Positions 13,925-45,798 of a stretch of 64,000 nt of DNA are shown here, in pieces (position 1 is the first letter of the stretch; every line of letters starts with the position of its first letter). Below the pieces are notes generated by a model. That model worked only from the letters and a program-made list of their open reading frames with translations, was not told the DNA's origin and made no database searches. The stretch lies in the NCBI RefSeq assembly GCF_003790525.1, contig NZ_CP033635.1. One strand, given 5' to 3'. Source of the stretch: Escherichia coli (GTDB lineage Bacteria > Pseudomonadota > Gammaproteobacteria > Enterobacterales > Enterobacteriaceae). The translations under genes and the position numbers were made by a program.

Positions 13925-15192
13925 CTTGCACCTCCTGGCAGCCGTTGACCGATTCGGGCCAGCACCTGCTGTTTAAGACCCTCATCACGCAGTGCTTCCG
14001 TCAGTTCAGCAGCAAAGGCGTAAATGATCATCTGCTGGGCATCCTGCTGATTGATCCCGCGCGAGCGCAGATAGAACATCTGTTCATCATCAATACGCCC
14101 CACCGTCGCGCCGTGGCTGCATTTCACATCATCTGCATAGATTTCCAGCTGCGGTTTCGTATCCACTTCCGCCAGTTTGCCCATCAGCAGATTATTGTTG
14201 GTCATCTGACCATCCGTTTTGATGGCGTGCTGCGCGACGTTGATCAAACCGTTAAATACCGCGCGGCCTTTGTCGCTGACGATAGTTTTATGCAACTGTC
14301 GACTGTTACAAAAACCTTTATTGTGTTCCAGCCAGGTACGGGTATCACACACCTCGTTTTTCACCGGCATCGCCAGGCTATTGATCCGCAGCGTGCTGTT
14401 TTCGCCATTGAGTTGCGTACTGGTGTTGTGTCGTAACACTGCGCCACCCAGCAGGAAACTGTGGCTAAATGCGGTGGCATCGTCAGCCAGCAACAAATCG
14501 TTATGGGCAAAGTGGTGACTGACCGGGTTTTCAAACGCCAGCTTGATATGCTGCAAGTGGGCGTTCGCTGCGACGTTGATAGTGAACCGTGCGCCGGTGA
14601 AGTGACGAGCATCATTAAGGCTGACAAAATGTTCGATCACCGTTGCTTCGGCACCTTCCGCCAGATCCAGATGATGTCGGTAATGGGCAGTATTCACCTC
14701 TTCACCTGCCACGCCCTGGGTGATATGCATTAACAGCAATGGCTTTGCCGGTCGTTGACCGCGCTTCACGGCGATATGCGTCACGCTTTGCGCCAGGCTT
14801 TCCGTCAAATGCAGAAACACTTCCGCCTGAATAGCGTCGGGTAACCCCTGACGGTCGTCGTTAATGCTCACTTCATACCCGCTGCCTTCAGTCGCATCGC
14901 TCAGTGCTGACACGTAACGTCCATCGACAAACACCAGCCGCACGGCGTCTAACGTTAACGCTAAGGCATCTCGCTGCTGTGGGGATATCTCTCCCGCAAT
15001 GCTGACAAACCGGCTATTGGTCAGCCCTTCCAGCGGCGTATATTTCCAGTTTTCATGTTTACGTGTCGGCAGTCCGGTACGCAGCAATTGTTGTAAATGC
15101 TGCTGTGCTTGCGGGGAGCGTTTCGCCACTTCAGCTTCAAACAAATGATGCCACTGTTGCAGTGCGTTACTGCTGTTCGGTAAGCCAGCCAT
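13921..15192 (-). CDS. sufD: Fe-S cluster assembly protein SufD (423 aa)
   Basis: Operon position and length. Confidence 0.9.
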
Positions 15193-15913
15193 AACCCTGC
15201 TCCTCCAGTTGTTTGACCAACGTGAAATCGCCGGATTTCACAATTCGTCCCTGATACAGCACATGGACGTAATCAGGCTTGATGTAGTCGAGAATGCGTT
15301 GGTAGTGCGTAACAATGATGAATGAACGCTTGCCGTCACGCAGCGAATTCACGCCATCGGCAACCACTTTTAATGCGTCAATATCCAGCCCAGAGTCCGA
15401 CTCATCAAGAATGCATAACTCCGGTTCCAGCACCGCCATTTGCAAAATATCGTTGCGCTTTTTCTCGCCGCCGGAAAAACCAACGTTTACCGAACGGGTT
15501 AATAAATCCTCCGGCATCTTCAGGAGAGCGATTTTCTCTTCCATCAAATCCTGAAAATCAAAGCGGTCGAGCGTTTCCTGGCCGCGATAGCTGCGCACCG
15601 CATTAAGTGCCGTTTGCAGGAAAAACTGGTTACTGACGCCGGGAATTTCCACCGGATACTGGAAGGCCATAAAGATGCCTTCACCTGCACGATCTTCCGG
15701 CGACAGCGCAAGCAAATCTTTGCCTTTGAACTCAACCGTGCCGCCCGTCACCTCATAATCTTCTCGCCCGGCAAGCGTTGCCGATAAGGTACTTTTGCCA
15801 GAACCGTTTGGCCCCATAATGGCGTGAACTTCGCCGGGACGAACGTCGAGGCTTAATCCACGCAGGATAGCTTTATCTTCCACGCTGACGTGTAAATCTT
15901 TAATACTTAACAT
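15167..15913 (-). CDS. sufC: Fe-S assembly ATPase SufC (248 aa)
   Basis: ABC ATPase with Walker A GPNGSGKST and signature LSGGEKKR. Confidence 0.93.
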   Translation of the reverse strand: MLSIKDLHVSVEDKAILRGLSLDVRPGEVHAIMGPNGSGKSTLSATLAGREDYEVTGGTVEFKGKDLLALSPEDRAGEGIFMAFQYPVEIPGVSNQFFLQTALNAVRSYRGQETLDRFDFQDLMEEKIALLKMPEDLLTRSVNVGFSGGEKKRNDILQMAVLEPELCILDESDSGLDIDALKVVADGVNSLRDGKRSFIIVTHYQRILDYIKPDYVHVLYQGRIVKSGDFTLVKQLEEQGYGWLTEQQ

Positions 15914-34798: not shown

Positions 34799-36088
34799 AT
34801 GTCGGATGACAAATTTGATGCCATTGTGGTCGGTGCGGGCGTTGCCGGTAGCGTTGCCGCACTGGTCATGGCGCAAGCCGGGCTGGATGTCCTGGTGATA
34901 GAACGCGGCGACAGTGCCGGATGTAAAAACATGACCGGCGGGCGTCTTTATGCCCACACACTTGAAGCGATTATTCCAGGCTTTGCAGCATCAGCGCCGG
35001 TAGAACGCAAGGTCACACGCGAGAAAATCTCCTTCTTAACCGATGAGAGTGCCGTTACCCTCGATTTTCACCGCGAGCAACCAGATGTTCCGCAACACGC
35101 GTCTTATACCGTATTGCGTAATCGTCTGGACCCGTGGTTGATGGAACAAGCCGAACAGGCTGGCGCGCAGTTTATCCCGGGCGTTCGTGTCGATGCGCTG
35201 GTTCGTGAAGGAAATAAGGTCACTGGCGTCCAGGCCGGGGATGATATTCTCGAAGCGAATGTGGTGATTCTGGCTGATGGCGTTAACTCGATGCTTGGCC
35301 GCTCGCTGGGAATGGTTCCCGCTTCCGATCCGCATCATTACGCTGTTGGTGTTAAAGAGGTTATTGGCCTCACACCAGAACAGATCAAGGATCGCTTTAA
35401 TATTACGGGCGAGGAAGGTGCCGCCTGGCTGTTTGCCGGTTCCCCTTCTGACGGCCTGATGGGCGGCGGATTCCTCTATACCAATAAGGATTCCATATCG
35501 TTGGGGCTGGTTTGTGGATTGGGTGATATCGCCCATGCGCAAAAAAGCGTGCCGCAAATGCTGGAAGATTTTAAACAACACCCCGCCATTCACCCGCTGA
35601 TTAGCGGCGGCAAACTGCTTGAATATTCCGCGCATATGGTGCCGGAGGGCGGTCTGGCAATGGTGCCGCAGCTGGTTAACGATGGCGTGATGATCGTTGG
35701 TGACGCCGCAGGCTTCTGCCTGAATTTGGGTTTTACAGTTCGCGGCATGGATTTAGCCATTGCATCAGCTCAGGCTGCCGCCACAACAGTGATTGCAGCC
35801 AAAGAACGCGCGGATTTCTCCGCCAGCAGTCTGGCGCAATACAAACGTGAGCTGGAACAAAGCTGCGTCATGCGTGATATGCAGCATTTTCGCAAGATCC
35901 CGGCGCTGATGGAAAATCCGCGCCTGTTTAGTCAGTATCCGCGCATGGTCGCCGACATCATGAACGAGATGTTCACCATTGACGGCAAACCAAACCAGCC
36001 GGTACGCAAAATGATCATGGGACACGCGAAGAAAATTGGGCTGATCAACTTGCTGAAAGATGGCATTAAGGGAGCAACCGCGCTATGA
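34799..36088 (+). CDS. ydiS: ETF-quinone oxidoreductase-like flavoprotein YdiS (429 aa)
   Basis: FAD-binding motif VVGAGVAGS; FixC-like. Confidence 0.9.
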   Translation: MSDDKFDAIVVGAGVAGSVAALVMAQAGLDVLVIERGDSAGCKNMTGGRLYAHTLEAIIPGFAASAPVERKVTREKISFLTDESAVTLDFHREQPDVPQHASYTVLRNRLDPWLMEQAEQAGAQFIPGVRVDALVREGNKVTGVQAGDDILEANVVILADGVNSMLGRSLGMVPASDPHHYAVGVKEVIGLTPEQIKDRFNITGEEGAAWLFAGSPSDGLMGGGFLYTNKDSISLGLVCGLGDIAHAQKSVPQMLEDFKQHPAIHPLISGGKLLEYSAHMVPEGGLAMVPQLVNDGVMIVGDAAGFCLNLGFTVRGMDLAIASAQAAATTVIAAKERADFSASSLAQYKRELEQSCVMRDMQHFRKIPALMENPRLFSQYPRMVADIMNEMFTIDGKPNQPVRKMIMGHAKKIGLINLLKDGIKGATAL

Positions 36089-36378
36089 GCCAGAACGCTA
36101 CGGTTAACGTCGACATCAAATTAGGCGTCAATAAATTCCATGTTGATGAGGGACACCCGCATATCATTTTGGCGGCAAATCCCGATATCAATGAATTCCG
36201 TAAATTAATGAAAGCTTGCCCTGCCGGACTTTATAAGCAGGATGACGCAGGAAACATTCATTTCGATTCCGCCGGTTGTCTGGAGTGCGGCACCTGTCGG
36301 GTGCTGTGCGGCAACACTATTCTCGAACAGTGGCAATATCCCGCAGGCACCTTCGGTATTGATTTTCGCTACGGCTAA
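36085..36378 (+). CDS. ydiT: Ferredoxin-like protein YdiT (97 aa)
   Basis: FixX-like with CxxCxxC motif; overlaps the ydiS stop by 4 nt. Confidence 0.88.
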   Translation: MSQNATVNVDIKLGVNKFHVDEGHPHIILAANPDINEFRKLMKACPAGLYKQDDAGNIHFDSAGCLECGTCRVLCGNTILEQWQYPAGTFGIDFRYG

Positions 36379-36380
36379 TC

Positions 36381-38075
36381 ATGCATCCCACAGGCCCGCA
36401 TCTCGGGCCTGATGTTCTGTTTCGAGAGTCCAAAATGAAAGTGACATTAACGTTTAACGAACAACGTCGTGCGGCGTATCGTCAGCAAGGGCTATGGGGC
36501 GATGCTTCGCTGGCCGATTACTGGCAGCAGACCGCTCGTGCGATGCCAGACAAAATTGCCGTGGTCGATAATCATGGTGCATCATACACCTATAGCGCGC
36601 TCGATCACGCCGCGAGCTGTCTGGCAAACTGGATGTTGACGAAGGGTATTGAATCAGGCGATCGCATCGCATTTCAACTGCCTGGCTGGTGTGAATTTAC
36701 CGTTATCTATCTTGCCTGCCTGAAAATCGGTGCGGTTTCCGTACCGCTGTTGCCTTCCTGGCGGGAAGCAGAACTAGTATGGGTACTCAATAAGTGTCAG
36801 GCAAAAATGTTCTTTGCACCGACGTTGTTTAAACAAACGCGTCCGGTAGATTTAATCCTGCCGCTGCAAAATCAGCTTCCACAACTACAACAAATTGTCG
36901 GCGTGGACAAACTGGCTCCCGCCACCTCTTCCCTCTCATTAAGTCAGATTCTCGCCGACAATACCCCACTGACTACGGCGATAACGACCCACGGCGATGA
37001 ATTAGCCGCTGTGCTATTTACCTCCGGAACCGAGGGTCTGCCAAAGGGCGTGATGCTAACGCATAACAATATTCTCGCCAGTGAGCGGGCTTATTGCGCG
37101 CGGCTGAATCTGACCTGGCAGGATGTCTTTATGATGCCTGCGCCACTTGGTCACGCAACGGGCTTTCTGCATGGCGTAACAGCACCATTTTTAATTGGTG
37201 CTCGCAGCGTGTTGTTAGATATTTTCACTCCTGCTGCGTGTCTCGCGCTGCTTGAGCAGCAGCGTTGCACCTGTATGCTCGGCGCAACGCCGTTTGTCTA
37301 TGATCTTTTGAATTTACTAGAGAAACAGCCCGCAGACCTTTCAGCGCTGCGTTTCTTTCTTTGTGGCGGTACCACAATCCCCAAAAAAGTGGCGCGTGAA
37401 TGCCAGCAGCGCGGCATTAAATTATTAAGTGTTTATGGTTCCACAGAAAGTTCGCCGCATGCGGTGGTGAATCTCGATGATCCTTTGTCGCGCTTTATGC
37501 ACACCGATGGTTACGCTGCCGCAGGTGTAGAGATTAAAGTGGTCGATGGCGCACGCAAGACCTTACCGCCAGGTTGCGAAGGTGAAGAAGCCTCGCGTGG
37601 CCCCAATGTGTTTATGGGGTATTTTGATGAACCTGAATTAACCGCCCATGCCCTGGATGAAGAAGGCTGGTATTACAGCGGCGATCTCTGCCGCATGGAT
37701 GAGGCTGGCTATATAAAAATAACCGGGCGCAAGAAAGATATTATTGTCCGCGGCGGCGAAAATATTAGCAGCCGTGAAGTGGAAGATATTTTATTACAGC
37801 ATCCTAAAATTCACGATGCTTGTGTGGTTGCGATGCCCGATGAACGCTTAGGTGAACGTTCATGCGCTTATGTCGTGCTGAAAGCACCGCATCATTCATT
37901 ATCGCTGGAAGATGTAGTGGCATTTTTTAGCCGTAAACGGGTCGCGAAATATAAATATCCTGAACATATCGTGGTAATCGAAAAACTACCGCGCACTGCC
38001 TCCGGTAAAATACAAAAATTTTTGTTACGTAAAGATATTCTTCAACGGCTGGAACAAACATGCGTTGAGGCATAA
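36381..38075 (+). CDS. fadK: Short-chain acyl-CoA synthetase FadK (YdiD)
   Basis: AMP-binding motif FTSGTEGLPKG. Start is uncertain between 36381 and the internal ATG at 36435. Confidence 0.85.
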   Translation: MHPTGPHLGPDVLFRESKMKVTLTFNEQRRAAYRQQGLWGDASLADYWQQTARAMPDKIAVVDNHGASYTYSALDHAASCLANWMLTKGIESGDRIAFQLPGWCEFTVIYLACLKIGAVSVPLLPSWREAELVWVLNKCQAKMFFAPTLFKQTRPVDLILPLQNQLPQLQQIVGVDKLAPATSSLSLSQILADNTPLTTAITTHGDELAAVLFTSGTEGLPKGVMLTHNNILASERAYCARLNLTWQDVFMMPAPLGHATGFLHGVTAPFLIGARSVLLDIFTPAACLALLEQQRCTCMLGATPFVYDLLNLLEKQPADLSALRFFLCGGTTIPKKVARECQQRGIKLLSVYGSTESSPHAVVNLDDPLSRFMHTDGYAAAGVEIKVVDGARKTLPPGCEGEEASRGPNVFMGYFDEPELTAHALDEEGWYYSGDLCRMDEAGYIKITGRKKDIIVRGGENISSREVEDILLQHPKIHDACVVAMPDERLGERSCAYVVLKAPHHSLSLEDVVAFFSRKRVAKYKYPEHIVVIEKLPRTASGKIQKFLLRKDILQRLEQTCVEA

Positions 38076-38084
38076 GTCATAAAT

Positions 38085-38120
38085 AATAAAGCACCTTACA
38101 CGCAAGGTGCTTTATTCAAT
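38085..38120. terminator. Bidirectional rho-independent terminator between fadK and the downstream SDR gene
   Basis: AAAGCACCTT-ACACGC-AAGGTGCTTT hairpin with T-rich flanks on both strands. Confidence 0.7.
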
Positions 38121-38125
38121 CTCGA

Positions 38126-38869
38126 TTAACCACGTCCGACATACGGCATATTATTTGCCATAATCGTTATTTCCAGCACATTCGTGGTTACTGGCAACTG
38201 AGCCATCATCTGAATGGTCGCTGCAACATCAGCAACATTCATCATATCTTCCGCTTTAATAGCACCATCTGCCTGATAAACGCCCTTACGCATCCGATTC
38301 GATAATGTCGTTTCCGCATTGCCGATATTAATTTGCCCGCAAGCGATATTAAATTTGCGACAATCCAGGGAAATGGCCTTGGTCAACCCGGTAACAGCAT
38401 GTTTCGACGCCGTGTATGGCGCAGTATAGAGGCGCGGCGTCAGTGCAGAAATCGACGCATTGTTAATAATACGTCCTCCCATTGGCTGCTGCGCTTTCAT
38501 GATTTTAATCGCCTCTTTCGAACACAAAAATGTCGAATGAATATTGGCGTTAAACACGCGCGTCCACTCAGTAAACTCAACCTCTTCAATACTTTTTGCC
38601 GGACTATTATTGCCCGCATTTTTGAACAAGAGATCCAGTCGACCAAAAAGAGCCTTAATCTCGGCAAATAGCGCAACGACAGCGGACTCATCCGTGACAT
38701 CGGCAACCAGAGGAATAAAGCGTTCCTTGGCTAATCCTTGTGCACATTGCTGTAAGGTTTCTTCGTTACGCGCGGCAACAATAACTGTATATCCAATGTC
38801 ATAGAGTGCCTTTGCTGCTGCGTAGCCGATGCCTTTACTTCCCCCCGTCACCAGGGCAATTTTTGTCAT
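38126..38869 (-). CDS. Short-chain dehydrogenase/reductase (SDR) family oxidoreductase (247 aa)
   Basis: TGGSKGIGYAAA NAD(P)-binding motif, NAG motif and catalytic YTASK (YxxxK). Confidence 0.8.
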   Translation of the reverse strand: MTKIALVTGGSKGIGYAAAKALYDIGYTVIVAARNEETLQQCAQGLAKERFIPLVADVTDESAVVALFAEIKALFGRLDLLFKNAGNNSPAKSIEEVEFTEWTRVFNANIHSTFLCSKEAIKIMKAQQPMGGRIINNASISALTPRLYTAPYTASKHAVTGLTKAISLDCRKFNIACGQINIGNAETTLSNRMRKGVYQADGAIKAEDMMNVADVAATIQMMAQLPVTTNVLEITIMANNMPYVGRG

Positions 38870-38881
38870 AGCCAGCTCCGC

Positions 38882-39361
38882 CTATAATAAACTCATGTCG
38901 ATTTTCACGACTGTTTTTTTGATTTTTTCCACGTTATCGATTTTATAGCATGCCCGATGCACTTCTTCCGGAAAGACCACCACAAACTGTCCTGGTGTCA
39001 GCGTGATGATTCGATCATTAATACGTTCATCAGCATAAAAAATAACATCACGGTCGCCCAGGTGGCTTTCTACAACCGAGTTTTCCCCATCATCAAAATC
39101 CACACAAATCCGCTCTTCTCCGGCAATTAAAAAATGGACATCAAGATATTTACGATGAACTTCCGGTCGACATTCATGTAGTGGTTTAGTCATCGGTTCA
39201 ACCACGGTATAAAATATTGAGTCATCCTGAATAAAAACCTTCTCTCCCACAGGAAGACTATTCAGATCATGTTGTGAAAGATACTCAATGACACGAGTGA
39301 TGACAGGATGAAATGTCCGCTTTTGTTGTTCACTAAGATACGCGATATCACCATAAATCAT
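38882..39361 (-). CDS. YhcH/YjgK/YiaL-family (DUF386) protein, about 160 aa
   Basis: Conserved C-terminal block GQFVVVFPEEVHRACYKIDNVEKIKKTVVK resembles E. coli YhcH (DFVVFYPGEVHKP...KAVVKM). The ORF track extends to 39496; I place the start at MIYGDIAYL (39361). Confidence 0.65.
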   Translation of the reverse strand: MIYGDIAYLSEQQKRTFHPVITRVIEYLSQHDLNSLPVGEKVFIQDDSIFYTVVEPMTKPLHECRPEVHRKYLDVHFLIAGEERICVDFDDGENSVVESHLGDRDVIFYADERINDRIITLTPGQFVVVFPEEVHRACYKIDNVEKIKKTVVKIDMSLL

Positions 39362-39371
39362 ATTTTCCGCC

Positions 39372-40330
39372 TTATTGAGTAACAGGGGTAATAACTGGCC
39401 GTCCGCTAAAGAAAGCCTGTAAGTTATCAAATACCAAATCCGCCATCGCATTAAACGTTTCGCTCGTACCACTGGCGATATGTGGCGTAAGGACAACGTT
39501 ATCCAGCGACATTAATTGTTCTGGCACATGTGGTTCGTTGGCATAAACGTCCAGTGCCGCACCAGCAATGATGTTATTTTGCAGAGCATCAATCAGATCG
39601 GTTTCGTTCACCACTGATCCCCGGGAAATACTGATCAAATGCCCGGTTTTCCCCAGAGCCTGCAGCACCGTTTTGTCAATAACGCCGCGCGTACTCGCGC
39701 CGCCTGGCAGCGTCAGAACGAGGAAGTCCACCGCTTGCGCCAGAGAAACCAACGAATCATGCGCCGTCCAATCAGGTTTGTTATGCGGTTTTGGGTCGAA
39801 ATAGTGAATTTCCATTTCAAATGCTGCTGCACGGCGGGCTACTGCGTTACCAATGTTCCCCAGACCGACAATTCCGCAACGTTTGCCACTCACTTTCGTC
39901 GCCATCGGGAAACGCCCCTCGTTTGGCCAACGGCCGTCACGAACATAACAATCGGCAATGTTAATACGTCGGGCAACATTGAGTAACAACGCTATACCAA
40001 TGTCTGCGACACAGTCATTAAGCACGCCAGGTGTGTTGGTGACGATAACGCCATGCTCCCTGGCTGCCACGATATCAATAGGGTCATAACCCACACCGTT
40101 GCTGGCAATAATCTTCAGATTCGGAATTTTTCTATTAGCGCCCGAGAAGCCCCCATTACCGGATTACCACTGGTCACCAGCGCCTGAATATCCGGCGCGA
40201 TTTGCGTGTAAAAAGCGCCTTCATCAGCCAGTTCCCACAGGCGATATGCGGTGAAGGTAGATTCAACTTTAGCCATTAAGCGGTCACTTAATTTGCCGAC
40301 GATCGCCACTTGAATATCTTTTAAGTTCAT
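39372..40330 (-). pseudogene. D-isomer-specific 2-hydroxyacid dehydrogenase, split by a probable 1-nt deletion
   Basis: N-terminal 71-aa ORF (40115..40330) and C-terminal 240-aa ORF (39372..40094; GIVGLGNIGNAVA NAD motif, catalytic His in HIASGT) are in different frames. The junction reads GAAAAATTCCGAATCTGAAGATT (minus strand); one extra C would give the contiguous EKFPNLKIIASNGVGYDPIDI. Confidence 0.7.
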
Positions 40331-40365
40331 ACACTATTCCTTGATTGATGTTTGTCGCAGGCCAC

Positions 40366-41772
40366 TTACCACAGGCCAAGAATTTTCCACCACACCGCCC
40401 CCAGTCCGAACCAGATGGCAATGTTCAACAACATGACGATAAAGCCCAGCCGCCACCATTCTCGTTGCGAGACATAGCCAGCGCCGTAATAGATCACTGC
40501 GGGTCCGTTGCCATAATGCGAAATGCCGCTCATCAGGTTAGTGACGAACGCCAGTGACAGAGCCGCCATCATCGGCGGTGCGCCAGCAGCAACCGAGACG
40601 CTGCCAAAAGCGGCATACATCGCCACTACATGCGGCGTACTTCCGGCAAAGAAATAGTGGGAATAGCAGTAAACTATCAGCAACACCGTCAACGTTATCT
40701 CCCACGGAATGCCGGTGAACAGCGCCGAGGTTGTGACGGCAAACCATTTGAACAGGCCAAGCTGATTGAGCTTATCTGCCATACAGATCATGACTCCCAG
40801 CCAGACCAGAATGTCCCAGGCCCCCTTCTCTGACTGCACATCCTGCCAGGTGATAATCCGGGTCATCAACATTAAACAGACGCCAGAAAGCGCGACAGCC
40901 GTCGCATCCAGGCCAGTCCATTTCGATGTACTCCAGGCCAATAATGAAAGCAGGAAAATGCCAATTGTCACGCGCTCATCACGGGTTACCGGCCCCATTT
41001 TGATAAGTTCTTCCTGTGCCAACGCTTTGGCTTCTGGCGTCTTTTTGATCTCTGGCGGGTAGAGTTTGTAAATGACCAACGGCATAGTGATAAAAGCGAT
41101 AATGCCCGGCACCAGTGCGCTTAGCGTCCACATCCCCCATGAGATATCGACAAATAAAGTGCTGGCCGCCAGAGATACAATGAGTGCATTTGGCGCGCTG
41201 GCCGTCATAAACATCGAGGATGAGAGACAGTTGGAATGGAACACCGTCTGCATCAGATAAGCGCCTATTTTACGCGGCCCTTGATCCGGTTCAGATCCAA
41301 AGCTGTTAGAGACACTGCGAACAATCGGGAACAAAATCCCTCCTGCTCGCGCTGTGTTTGATGGCGTTGCGGGCGCGATAATCATATCGCTTAGCGCCAA
41401 TGTATAACCCAGACGCAACGAGCTGCCGCCAAATCCGCGAATCAGCAAATAGGCGATACGCCGCCCCAACCCCGTTTTGATGAATCCTTTCGCGTACAGG
41501 AATGCGGCGACAATAAGCCATACCGTCGTGCTGCTGAAACCTTTTAAGGCTTCGCTGGTTTTCATCATACCGGTCAGCATAATAAAACTGATGGCTATTA
41601 ACGCGATAGCGCCCACCGGCAACGGTTGCAGAATAAACGCCACCACAGTGGTGATAAATATGGCCAGAATGTGCCAGGTTAAGGGTGTTAATCCGTCGGG
41701 GACGGGGAAAAACCATATAGCGAGTGCGACAATCGCACAAATCAGGACTTTCAAATAGCAACTCATATGCAA
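40366..41772 (-). CDS. DASS-family anion transporter (CitT/TtdT-like), 466-468 aa
   Basis: Motifs shared with E. coli CitT: FPVPDG, GFSSTTVWL, GLGRRIA, TPSNTARAGG, SSSMF, YWRLG-like C-terminus. The second ATG at 41766 has the better Shine-Dalgarno spacing. Confidence 0.8.
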   Translation of the reverse strand: MHMSCYLKVLICAIVALAIWFFPVPDGLTPLTWHILAIFITTVVAFILQPLPVGAIALIAISFIMLTGMMKTSEALKGFSSTTVWLIVAAFLYAKGFIKTGLGRRIAYLLIRGFGGSSLRLGYTLALSDMIIAPATPSNTARAGGILFPIVRSVSNSFGSEPDQGPRKIGAYLMQTVFHSNCLSSSMFMTASAPNALIVSLAASTLFVDISWGMWTLSALVPGIIAFITMPLVIYKLYPPEIKKTPEAKALAQEELIKMGPVTRDERVTIGIFLLSLLAWSTSKWTGLDATAVALSGVCLMLMTRIITWQDVQSEKGAWDILVWLGVMICMADKLNQLGLFKWFAVTTSALFTGIPWEITLTVLLIVYCYSHYFFAGSTPHVVAMYAAFGSVSVAAGAPPMMAALSLAFVTNLMSGISHYGNGPAVIYYGAGYVSQREWWRLGFIVMLLNIAIWFGLGAVWWKILGLW

Positions 41773-42218
41773 TCCCTGTAGCTGTTTCCCACCGCTCGCG
41801 GAGGGAATTTATCCTGTTTTCTGTACAGCCAGACAAATCAGAAAATCGGTTTTAGTTCGAATAAATTCTCTGAATTACATAATCTGCGCTTATGTCTGAA
41901 TAACGGTGCGGTAATTTTTCATGGCCATATCCCTTTTTATGCTGTGGTTGAAGATAGTATAAAAACGGGACTCATCAGTGACTTCGTGCAATCCAACGAA
42001 CTCTGGACGAAAAAATTACGCATATGCTTAAGGAAATTGACGTGTGGTCACATTCGGCTTTGAGAAAAAACGGTATCGAGAATTATTCTGTGGAGAGGAT
42101 CGCAAACAAATTAAAATCAGAAAGAACAGCAGCCAATTATTCAGATGATGTCCGGAAACTTTTTATATTGCATGAGCGCGTTTGCCCAAAGCAGGTTGTT
42201 AAAAGGTGGGGATATAGA

Positions 42219-42253
42219 AATGGACCCGGCGACTGAACGCCGCCGGGTTTTTA
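42219..42253. terminator. Terminator hairpin abutting the ppsA stop codon
   Basis: ACCCGGCG-ACTGAA-CGCCGGGT followed by TTTTTATTT on the plus strand; likely the ppsA terminator acting bidirectionally. Confidence 0.6.
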
Positions 42254-42254
42254 T

Positions 42255-44633
42255 TTACTTGTTAAGTTCAGCCAGACTTAACCAGGTTTGCACCACGGTG
42301 TCCGGGTTAAGAGACAGGCTATCGATCCCCTCTTCCATCAACCATGCAGCAAAGTCTTCGTGGTCGGATGGACCCTGACCGCAAATCCCGACATATTTGC
42401 CCTGTTTCTTCGCGGCACGAATCGCCATCGACAGCAGTGCTTTCACCGCATCGTTGCGCTCATCGAACAGTTCAGATACCACGCCGGAGTCACGATCCAG
42501 ACCGAGCGCCAGCTGCGTCATGTCGTTTGAGCCAATTGAGAAGCCGTCGAAATATTCGAGGAACTGCTCGGCCAGCAAGGCGTTGGACGGGATTTCACAC
42601 ATCATGATGATTTTCAGCCCGTTCTCACCACGTTTCAGCCCCTGACGCGCCAGTTCCTCAACCACCGCTTTCGCCTGATCTACGGTACGCACGAACGGGA
42701 TCATGATCTCAACGTTGGTCAGCCCCATGTCGTTGCGCACACGTTTCACTGCTTCACACTCCAGCGCGAAGCAGTCGCGGAAGCTGTCGGAAACATAGCG
42801 GCCCGCGCCACGGAAGCCGAGCATCGGGTTCTCTTCATCTGGCTCGTAACGCTCACCACCGACCAGGTTGGCATATTCGTTCGATTTAAAATCAGAGAGA
42901 CGGACAATGACGCGCTTCGGATAAAACGCGGCACCCAGCGTCGCGATCCCTTCAGTCAGACGACCAACGTAAAATTCACGCGGAGAATCAAAACCTTTCA
43001 TCATCTCGCGGATTTCGTTTTGCAACTGCGGTTCTTGATCGTCAAACTCAAGCAGCGCGCGTGGGTGGACGCCAATCATACGGTTGATGATAAATTCCAG
43101 ACGCGCAAGGCCCACGCCTTCGTTCGGCAGGCAGGCGAAGTCGAAAGCACGATCCGGGTTACCGACGTTCATCATCACCTTCAACGGCAGGTCCGGCATC
43201 GTTTCTACGCTGGAGCTTTTCACGCTAAATTCCAGCAACTCCGCATAGACATAACCGGTATCACCTTCGGCACAAGAAACAGTGACGTTCTCACCGTCTT
43301 TCATCCGTTCTGTTGCATCACCACAGCCCACTACCGCCGGAATGCCGAGTTCACGAGCGATGATCGCCGCGTGACAGGTACGACCGCCACGGTTGGTGAC
43401 GATGGCAGATGCTTTCTTCATGATCGGTTCCCAGTCCGGGTCGGTCATGTCAGTAACCAGCACGTCACCAGGTTCGATGCGGTTCATTTCGCTGATGTCA
43501 TGGATGACTTTCACCGGACCCGCGCCGATGCGATGACCGATAGCACGGCCTTCGGCGATAATCTTACCCTGTGAATGCAGCGTATAACGCTCCATGACCT
43601 GACCGCGTGAGCGCACGGTTTCCGGACGCGCCTGCACAATGAACAGTTTGCCGGTGTGGCCATCTTTCGCCCACTCAATATCCATCGGGCGACCGTAGTG
43701 TTTCTCAATTTGTACGGCCTGTTTTGCCAGTTCCTGCACTTCTTCGTTGGTCAGCGAGAAGATGTCACGCTGTTCCTGCGGTACGTCTTCGATTTTAACC
43801 TGCTTGCCGTGCTCCTGGGTCGGCGCGTAAACCATGCGGATTTTTTTCGACCCCATGGTGCGGCGCACGATAGCCGGGCGATTCGCCGCCAGTGTCGGTT
43901 TGTGCACGTAAAACTCATCCGGGTTAACCGCACCCTGCACGACCATTTCACCAAGGCCCCATGCGGAAGTGATAAACACCACCTGGTCAAAGCCGGATTC
44001 GGTATCAATGGAGAACATCACGCCAGAAGATGCGAGGTCGGAGCGCACCATCCGCTGAACACCGGCGGAGAGCGCCACGCCACGGTGATCGTAACCCTGG
44101 TGCACACGATAAGAGATGGCGCGATCGTTAAACAGAGAAGCAAATACATGTTTCACTGCCACGAGAACGGCGTCAAAACCCTGAACGTTGAGGAAGGTTT
44201 CCTGCTGACCGGCAAAAGAAGCGTCCGGCATATCTTCTGCAGTAGCGGAGGAACGCACCGCAAACGAGGCGTTTTCGTCATCGGCGGAAAGCTGTGCATA
44301 GGCTTCGCGGATGGCGTTTTCCAGCTCAGGCTGGAAGGGAGTGTCGATAATCCACTGGCGGATTTGCGCGCCCGCTTTCGCAAGCTGGGTAACATCGTCA
44401 ATATCCGTTTTATCCAGCAGTTCATAAATGCGCTGGTTTACGCCGCTTTGGTCCAGAAACTGGTTAAACGCGTCGGCGGTTGTGGCGAAACCATTCGGAA
44501 CGGAAACACCCATTCCGGAAAGGTTAGTAATCATTTCACCCAGGGAGGCATTTTTGCCCCCAACCCTGTCTACATCATTCATGCCGAGTTGGTTATACCA
44601 AAGCACCAGCGGTGACGAGCCATTGTTGGACAT
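42255..44633 (-). CDS. ppsA: Phosphoenolpyruvate synthase (792 aa)
   Basis: Full-length PpsA by sequence, [34 protein letters not shown] onwards. Confidence 0.96.
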
Positions 44634-44718
44634 CGAACAATCCTTTTGTGATAAATGAACGGTTTGAGAAACACATTTCTGCGCATTTATCTTTGCATAT
44701 TTAACCGGATGAAAAAAA

Positions 44719-44734
44719 CGGTGAATCGTTCAAG
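44719..44734. promoter_or_regulatory. Cra (FruR)-box-like site in the ppsA promoter
   Basis: GGTGAATCGTTCAAGC resembles the Cra consensus; ppsA is a known Cra-activated gene. Confidence 0.5.
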
Positions 44735-44964
44735 CAAATATATTTTTTTACTTTTTAAGACTGATCCCAGCGTTGCGCAAATCTGCTCTCTTCGACAATT
44801 TCCACATAAACCATCGGTATAAACGAAACCATAAAAATGAAATGCTGTTTTCATAAAAAATAAAATTGAAGGTTCATTTATAAACCAGACATAACGTTCT
44901 ACGCTTCTGTGCGTTTTTAATTTATGCTTTCATAGAATTATGTCTGCATCACGGGAAGAACAAA

Positions 44965-45798
44965 ATGGATAATGCTGTTGATCGCCACGTTTTTTATATT
45001 TCTGATGGTACGGCAATAACTGCGGAGGTATTAGGACACGCAGTAATGTCACAATTTCCCGTCACTATCAGCAGCATTACGCTGCCGTTTGTCGAAAATG
45101 AGAGCCGTGCACGGGCAGTGAAGGATCAGATTGACGCAATTTATCACCAGACAGGCGTGCGCCCGCTGGTCTTCTACTCCATCGTGTTGCCGGAGATTCG
45201 CGCCATCATCTTGCAAAGTGAGGGCTTTTGCCAGGATATCGTTCAGGCGCTGGTTGCCCCGCTACAACAAGAGATGAAACTGGATCCCACGCCGATTGCT
45301 CATCGTACCCATGGCCTGAACCCTAATAACCTCAATAAATATGATGCGCGTATTGCGGCGATTGATTACACCCTTGCCCATGACGACGGCATTTCGTTGC
45401 GCAATCTGGACCAGGCTCAGGTGATCCTGCTCGGTGTTTCTCGCTGTGGTAAAACCCCCACCAGTCTGTATCTGGCAATGCAATTTGGTATCCGCGCGGC
45501 AAACTACCCCTTTATTGCCGACGATATGGATAATCTGGTGCTACCCGCGTCGCTCAAACCGCTTCAGCACAAATTGTTCGGCCTGACTATCGACCCGGAA
45601 CGTCTGGCGGCGATTCGCGAGGAACGTCGGGAGAACAGTCGCTATGCCTCGCTTCGTCAGTGCAGGATGGAAGTCGCGGAAGTGGAAGCGTTGTACCGTA
45701 AAAATCAGATCCCGTGGATTAACAGTACCAATTATTCGGTAGAAGAGATTGCCACCAAGATCCTCGATATCATGGGCCTTAGCCGTCGAATGTACTAG
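44965..45798 (+). CDS. ppsR: PEP synthase regulatory protein PpsR (YdiA, 277 aa)
   Basis: Divergent from ppsA; P-loop GVSRCGKT. Confidence 0.93.

Follow-up and report, generated by a model that had tools for sequence, protein, structure and literature searches.

The dehydrogenase gene lies in a four-gene accessory cassette

The window analysed here, a 64,000-nucleotide stretch of Escherichia coli contig NZ_CP033635.1, carries between fadK and ppsA an accessory insertion (Table 1) that stands in place of 67 bp of the fadK-ppsA spacer and the final fadK codons of K-12. The match to K-12 ends 36 nt short of the stop codon of the window's fadK (window 38040-38075; K-12 fetched locus 4637-4678), and the left boundary of the insertion therefore falls inside the fadK 3' end; the last dozen or so residues of FadK differ from those of K-12. 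The insertion holds a cassette of four minus-strand genes, 10-35 bp apart, encoding a DASS permease, a 2-hydroxyacid dehydrogenase (2-HADH), a DUF386 protein and an SDR oxidoreductase, none of which reached an NCBIfam equivalog cutoff. No regulator gene was found within the cassette, and promoter and terminator consensus scans of it returned counts at chance level. A consensus scan revealed no minus-strand promoter in 41767-42224, about 450 bp of non-coding DNA extending from the permease start to the ppsA terminator; a putative 70-aa plus-strand ORF is located at 42024-42236. Our search for literature on the cassette retrieved nothing relevant.

Table 1. Features of the cassette, of the split dehydrogenase gene and of the differences from E. 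coli SMS-3-5 (window coordinates)
Feature	Position	Strand	Basis or remark
Accessory insertion, ~4.2 kb	38040..42224		BLAST of window 36000-45000 against K-12
DASS-family anion permease/symporter, first gene	40366..41766	-	PF00939, TIGR00785; intact, identical to SMS-3-5
2-HADH, second gene	39372-40330	-	PF02826 and PF00389; frameshifted
YhcH/YjgK/YiaL (DUF386) protein, third gene	38882..39361	-	Intact; begins 10 bp downstream of the dehydrogenase stop
Classical SDR oxidoreductase, fourth gene	38126..38869	-	Carries N83K at 38621
N-terminal fragment ORF of 2-HADH	40115..40330	-	71 codons: 69 native residues plus Arg-Ile; ORF reading and comparison with the intact protein
Remaining 2-HADH coding sequence, P70 to Q319 plus stop	39372..40124	-	Now in the -1 frame
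Lesion site	40125..40126	-	Coding-strand TT, TTT in every orthologue (codon F69); plus strand AA versus AAA
Difference from SMS-3-5: AAC->AAT in sufC (15167-15913), codon 189	15347	-	Synonymous
Difference from SMS-3-5: AAT->AAA in SDR gene (38126-38869), codon 83	38621	-	N83K
Difference from SMS-3-5: one T deleted from TTT	40125-40126	-	Frameshift in the dehydrogenase gene

A megablast search with the locus, run on 5426 complete E. coli genomes, found the dehydrogenase gene and its cassette in 114 of them (~2%), the gene being chromosomal in every case. Calculated between the two E. coli allele groups of the cassette, which share about 96% identity, dN/dS was 0.027, 0.091, 0.060 and 0.089 for the DASS, 2-HADH, DUF386 and SDR genes, respectively, and values as low as these (0.03-0.09) argue that the cassette is maintained by selection where present. 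The same four genes occur in the same order in a Mangrovibacter-type contig (Logan DRR526049, 4535-8278; dehydrogenase 74% identical), flanked there by genes for a TonB-dependent receptor and an acetyltransferase that are unrelated to the E. coli neighbourhood. Conservation of the full set at an unrelated site suggests that the cassette moves as a unit. In Pantoea, the dehydrogenase (about 60% identity) lies beside an MFS transporter instead.

The intact protein is a D-isomer-specific 2-hydroxyacid dehydrogenase

The intact (or repaired) dehydrogenase scored above the Pfam gathering thresholds for both PF02826 (170 bits, cutoff 25.1) and PF00389 (77 bits, cutoff 24.6), with the NAD-binding domain nested inside the catalytic domain, which identifies it with the D-isomer-specific 2-hydroxyacid dehydrogenase family. 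Across 12 homologues of 52-97% identity, G156/G158/G161, R237, E266 and H284 are invariant, and P70 and most of the PNLKIIASNGVGYD stretch are invariant or nearly so. All of the former residues map to the part of the window gene that is out of frame, and the single uninterrupted reading frame that holds both domains elsewhere is missing from the window. Solved structures closest to the E. coli enzyme are of the GHRB type, namely 4lsw (Ketogulonicigenium D-2-hydroxyacid dehydrogenase), 5j23/5v6q (Sinorhizobium NADPH-dependent glyoxylate/hydroxypyruvate reductase) and 3ba1 (hydroxyphenylpyruvate reductase), with full-length similarity at E values of 4e-80 to 8e-75. The E. coli dehydrogenase shares with these enzymes the GxGxxG motif and the Arg/Glu/His residues, and the region of the lesion aligns with them without gaps. 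However, it fell below the GhrB cutoff (NF011938, 173.8 bits versus 492), and it also remained under that for glyoxylate reductase (NF009714, 223.9 versus 455). Because it lies below every NCBIfam equivalog cutoff, the protein is, by these profile scores, a member of the family and not a GhrB or glyoxylate reductase equivalog.

A single missing T splits the gene into two reading frames

Reading of the ORFs in the window placed the dehydrogenase gene in two frames of the minus strand. In gene orientation, the N-terminal frame reads ...GGG GCT TCT CGG GCG CTA ATA GAA AAA TTC CGA ATC TGA, and ends at this premature TGA (40117-40115), which stands as codon 72, with the frame broken at codon 69/70. 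The -1 frame runs through AAA ATT CCG AAT CTG AAG ATT ATT GCC AGC AAC GGT GTG GGT TAT GAC, that is, PNLKIIASNGVGYD, and stays open for 250 codons up to the stop at 39374-39372; this out-of-frame part carries the GVGYD loop, the GLGNIG NAD motif and the catalytic R237/E266/H284. Its earliest in-frame start is a GTG at 40094-40092, upstream of which we see no Shine-Dalgarno sequence. In other E. coli, a single continuous protein of 319 aa matches both halves, and at the 2014C-3075, XH990 and IAI39 loci the gene is a single 319-codon CDS annotated as '2-hydroxyacid dehydrogenase'. Since the Pfam domains 2-Hacid_dh and 2-Hacid_dh_C span residues 42-317 of the intact protein, and solved homologues align across the junction, the split, as judged by these alignments, is not a chance pair of ORFs. 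These readings bear out the first-pass annotation, which had described a single-base frameshift splitting the 2-hydroxyacid dehydrogenase of the accessory insertion. Its finer reading, a 71-codon ORF ending in TGA with a C-terminal frame continuing as AAA ATT CCG AAT, was reproduced when we read the sequence again, and the interval that it had marked (40094-40130) takes in the lesion, the premature TGA and the earliest codon at which translation could restart.

The site of the lesion adjoins a run of five A on the coding strand. Alignment with the loci of 2014C-3075, XH990 and IAI39 placed the sole gap in the run of T, these three intact alleles reading GAA AAA TTT CCG AAT (E-K-F-P-N) where the window has GAAAAATTCCGAAT. 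Full-length matches among those listed by megablast each span 1102 bases, versus 1101 in the query. An 81-mer centred on the lesion site was further compared with the complete E. coli genomes; it matched 102 of them, none without a gap (0/102), and all 102 are one base longer than the window across the site and have CC, as the window does. From these alignments, the lost base is read as a T of the F69 codon (TTT->TT). The nearest intact relative is the RefSeq allele WP_001049278.1 (E. coli SMS-3-5 and 2014C-3075), whose DNA is identical bar one T and whose gene occupies the same place between the DASS permease and DUF386 genes, with the same flanks, fadK and ppsA. Unlike this allele, the window copy ends at codon 71 and leaves the other 250 codons out of frame.

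The missing base had been assigned at first to the neighbouring run, in that an ancestral CCC would have lost one C (TTCCCG -> TTCCG). It is true that one added base restores EKFPNLKII, and a C does so as well as a T, because TTC and TTT both encode Phe. Yet all intact alleles, including those otherwise identical to the window, read TTTCCG with CC, and a CCC ancestor would require an additional, unobserved T->C change. The orthologue alignment thus led us to reject the CCC->CC model, to which we attach next to no probability. The check proposed at that stage, CCC versus CC in orthologues, finds CC everywhere, and this does not rescue the gene, since the difference lies one run upstream.

The lesion is private to the window sequence

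We extended the search for either allele beyond complete E. coli genomes. A pattern scan of GTDB representative genomes for both forms gave no match, and that of a metagenome collection returned two contigs, both with TTT (TTTCCG). In an exact-protein look-up of public assemblies, neither the 240-aa C-terminal ORF nor the K83 version of the SDR protein was on record, and the exact 71-aa product was on record only in one Logan contig of 1225 bp (SRR15989441). This contig carries a different one-base deletion, TTTCG, in which a C is lost, and its permease gene has four further small indels, on which grounds we rejected it as an independent copy of the lesion; it looks like the outcome of error-prone reads and not like the same allele. 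The case also illustrates that exact-protein matches can stem from different lesions.

Compared over 24 kb, SMS-3-5 and about ten further complete genomes have the sequence of the window, bar one gap and one mismatch. We then fetched the whole corresponding stretch of SMS-3-5 and walked through both sequences base by base (64000 bases in the window versus 64001), which uncovered exactly three differences in 64 kb (Table 1). With 81-mers against the complete genomes, the SDR N83K variant was recovered from 0 of 114 genomes and the sufC variant from 0 of the 2420 genomes matched. By this count, all three differences are private to the window sequence and occur in none of the 5426 complete genomes. 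That only three variants separate the window from SMS-3-5, all absent from these genomes, indicates that the lesion arose on the terminal branch of the strain. The cassette, at 3647 bp, makes up 5.7% of the window and holds two of the three private changes; were changes placed at random, at least two of three would land there with a probability of ~0.009, a figure calculated post hoc on very few events. As for run lengths, all 297 homopolymer runs of at least five bases, including 29 of at least seven, are equal in length to those of SMS-3-5, and the only indel in 64 kb, that of the lesion, is in a three-base run.

The second change in the cassette affects a conserved motif. We tested the SDR of the window for TGxxxGxG, NNAG and YxxxK, and found the first and last present as TGGSKGIG and YTASK, while N83K alters the first Asn of the classical NNAG motif to yield KNAG, which is confined to the window. 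All three of the closest solved homologues retain NNAG. N83K is probably a second damaging change in the same operon as the frameshift.

Recoding is not expected to restore the enzyme

Functional recoding could in principle still deliver a full-length product (EKIPNL...) by one of two routes: a -1 shift of the ribosome as tRNA-Lys slips on A-AAA, or slippage of the transcribing polymerase within the A5 run. With tRNA-Lys in the P site on AAA, perfect re-pairing one base back is possible, after which the -1 frame continues with ATT CCG AAT, and some background slippage on such AAA sites is known in E. coli. However, the site offers only A-AAA followed by UUC and no X XXY YYZ heptamer, an upstream Shine-Dalgarno-like stimulator is absent from the sequence, and the 91 nt downstream fold no better than their shuffles (z = 0.22). 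Efficient transcriptional slippage needs a run longer than A5. Moreover, all orthologues are in one frame, and since none is frameshifted, nothing could have selected for recoding. A programmed -1 frameshift of the dnaX or IS3 type was accordingly rejected, given the unshifted orthologues and the lack of both a heptamer and a stimulatory structure. We consider functional recoding very improbable, and any that occurs would be a trace leak at most.

Reinitiation downstream is also unlikely to yield an active enzyme. The lack of a visible Shine-Dalgarno sequence makes initiation at the GTG at 40094 unlikely, and a protein started there would be without the N-terminal half of the catalytic domain.

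A probable recent loss of function

Taken together, the observations point to a genuine and very recent loss-of-function mutation, which we hold to be probable, if by no means certain. What was found at the locus would correspond to a frameshift pseudogene: an indel not divisible by three, a TGA two codons on, and intact orthologues under purifying selection, which marks the intact form as the functional state. In the sequence of events that we propose, one T would have been deleted from the F69 TTT, inside the AAAAATTT stretch of the cassette's dehydrogenase gene. As the window sequence reads, the product ends after 69 native residues and Arg-Ile, with the 250 codons for the NAD-binding domain and the catalytic Arg/Glu/His left out of frame, so that presumably no active enzyme is made. 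The ~740 nt of mRNA left untranslated may in addition lower expression of the closely spaced DUF386 and SDR genes downstream by polarity. With the frameshift and SDR N83K combined, the cassette would be out of use in this strain, by relaxed selection or by selection for loss. The first-pass annotation had raised the idea that the module is decaying, to which N83K, as a second private and probably damaging change, lends some support. A more specific version is that frameshift and N83K both reflect selection to switch off the cassette (adaptive gene loss), driven for instance by a toxic intermediate from a partly functioning pathway; this seems to us improbable.

The main competing explanation is a sequencing or assembly artefact, whereby the strain would truly carry TTT and the consensus would have lost one base at the junction in AAAAATTT. 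The change is confined to the window sequence, whose background over 24 kb is otherwise that of ten complete genomes, and it sits in a run-rich context, where a one-base deletion beside a homopolymer is a classic residual assembly error. The noisy Logan contig, moreover, arrives at the identical 71-aa ORF by losing a different base, which shows that the spot can be miscalled. Errors of the homopolymer type, however, would strike the 297 runs of at least five bases first, and the 64 kb contain no other indel. The remaining two private differences are substitutions, one of them an unremarkable synonymous transition. That the same operon should bear a second private change, also damaging, is more readily explained biologically. 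The artefact is a possibility that we take seriously and nonetheless lean against; the absence of any other indel in 64 kb and the nature of the other private changes, substitutions of which one damages the same operon, lead us to favour a real mutation.

Natural loss of this gene does occur, as evidenced by E. coli DSM 103246 (NZ_CP019944.1), in which IS2 has inserted close to the 3' end of this dehydrogenase gene (fetched-locus positions 5071-7300) and left a shortened annotated CDS of 894 nt. The two strains are alike in carrying independently disrupted copies of the same cassette gene, but differ in how it was disrupted, by an IS insertion on an allele background of 95.7% identity in DSM 103246 and by a one-base deletion in the window.

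Implications for annotation and other features of the window

As a frameshifted allele of an accessory gene already annotated, the lesion is routine and departs in nothing from known kinds. Annotators should enter the locus as a frameshifted pseudogene, or mark it for a check at the read level, and not as two separate genes, and the strain should be assumed to be without the function of the DASS / 2-HADH / DUF386 / SDR cassette. Beyond annotation, the lesion matters little. Its modest interest lies in the possible double hit within one strain to an uncharacterised, selectively maintained cassette, which is restricted to ~2% of complete E. coli genomes, evolves under purifying selection and has stayed together in another genus. 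For anyone looking for the substrate of the cassette, a strain with both hits already in place could provide a negative control.

A second split gene was observed elsewhere in the window. ydhS, encoding an FAD-NAD(P)-binding protein (538-2135, plus strand), is divided into ORFs at 538-1683 and 1782-2135; most E. coli span seven more bases here, and SMS-3-5 is identical to the window and annotated as 'frameshifted'. Like the dehydrogenase gene, ydhS is a conserved ORF, intact in most strains, that a small indel has split. The dehydrogenase lesion is private to the window sequence, whereas the 7-bp difference in ydhS is common to SMS-3-5, and given this identity the ydhS pseudogene is shared at least with that strain. 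At about 60470-62368, between yniD and thrS, the window also carries a gene that the SMS-3-5 annotation names as the type III secretion effector EspL1 (record 1453897-1455795).
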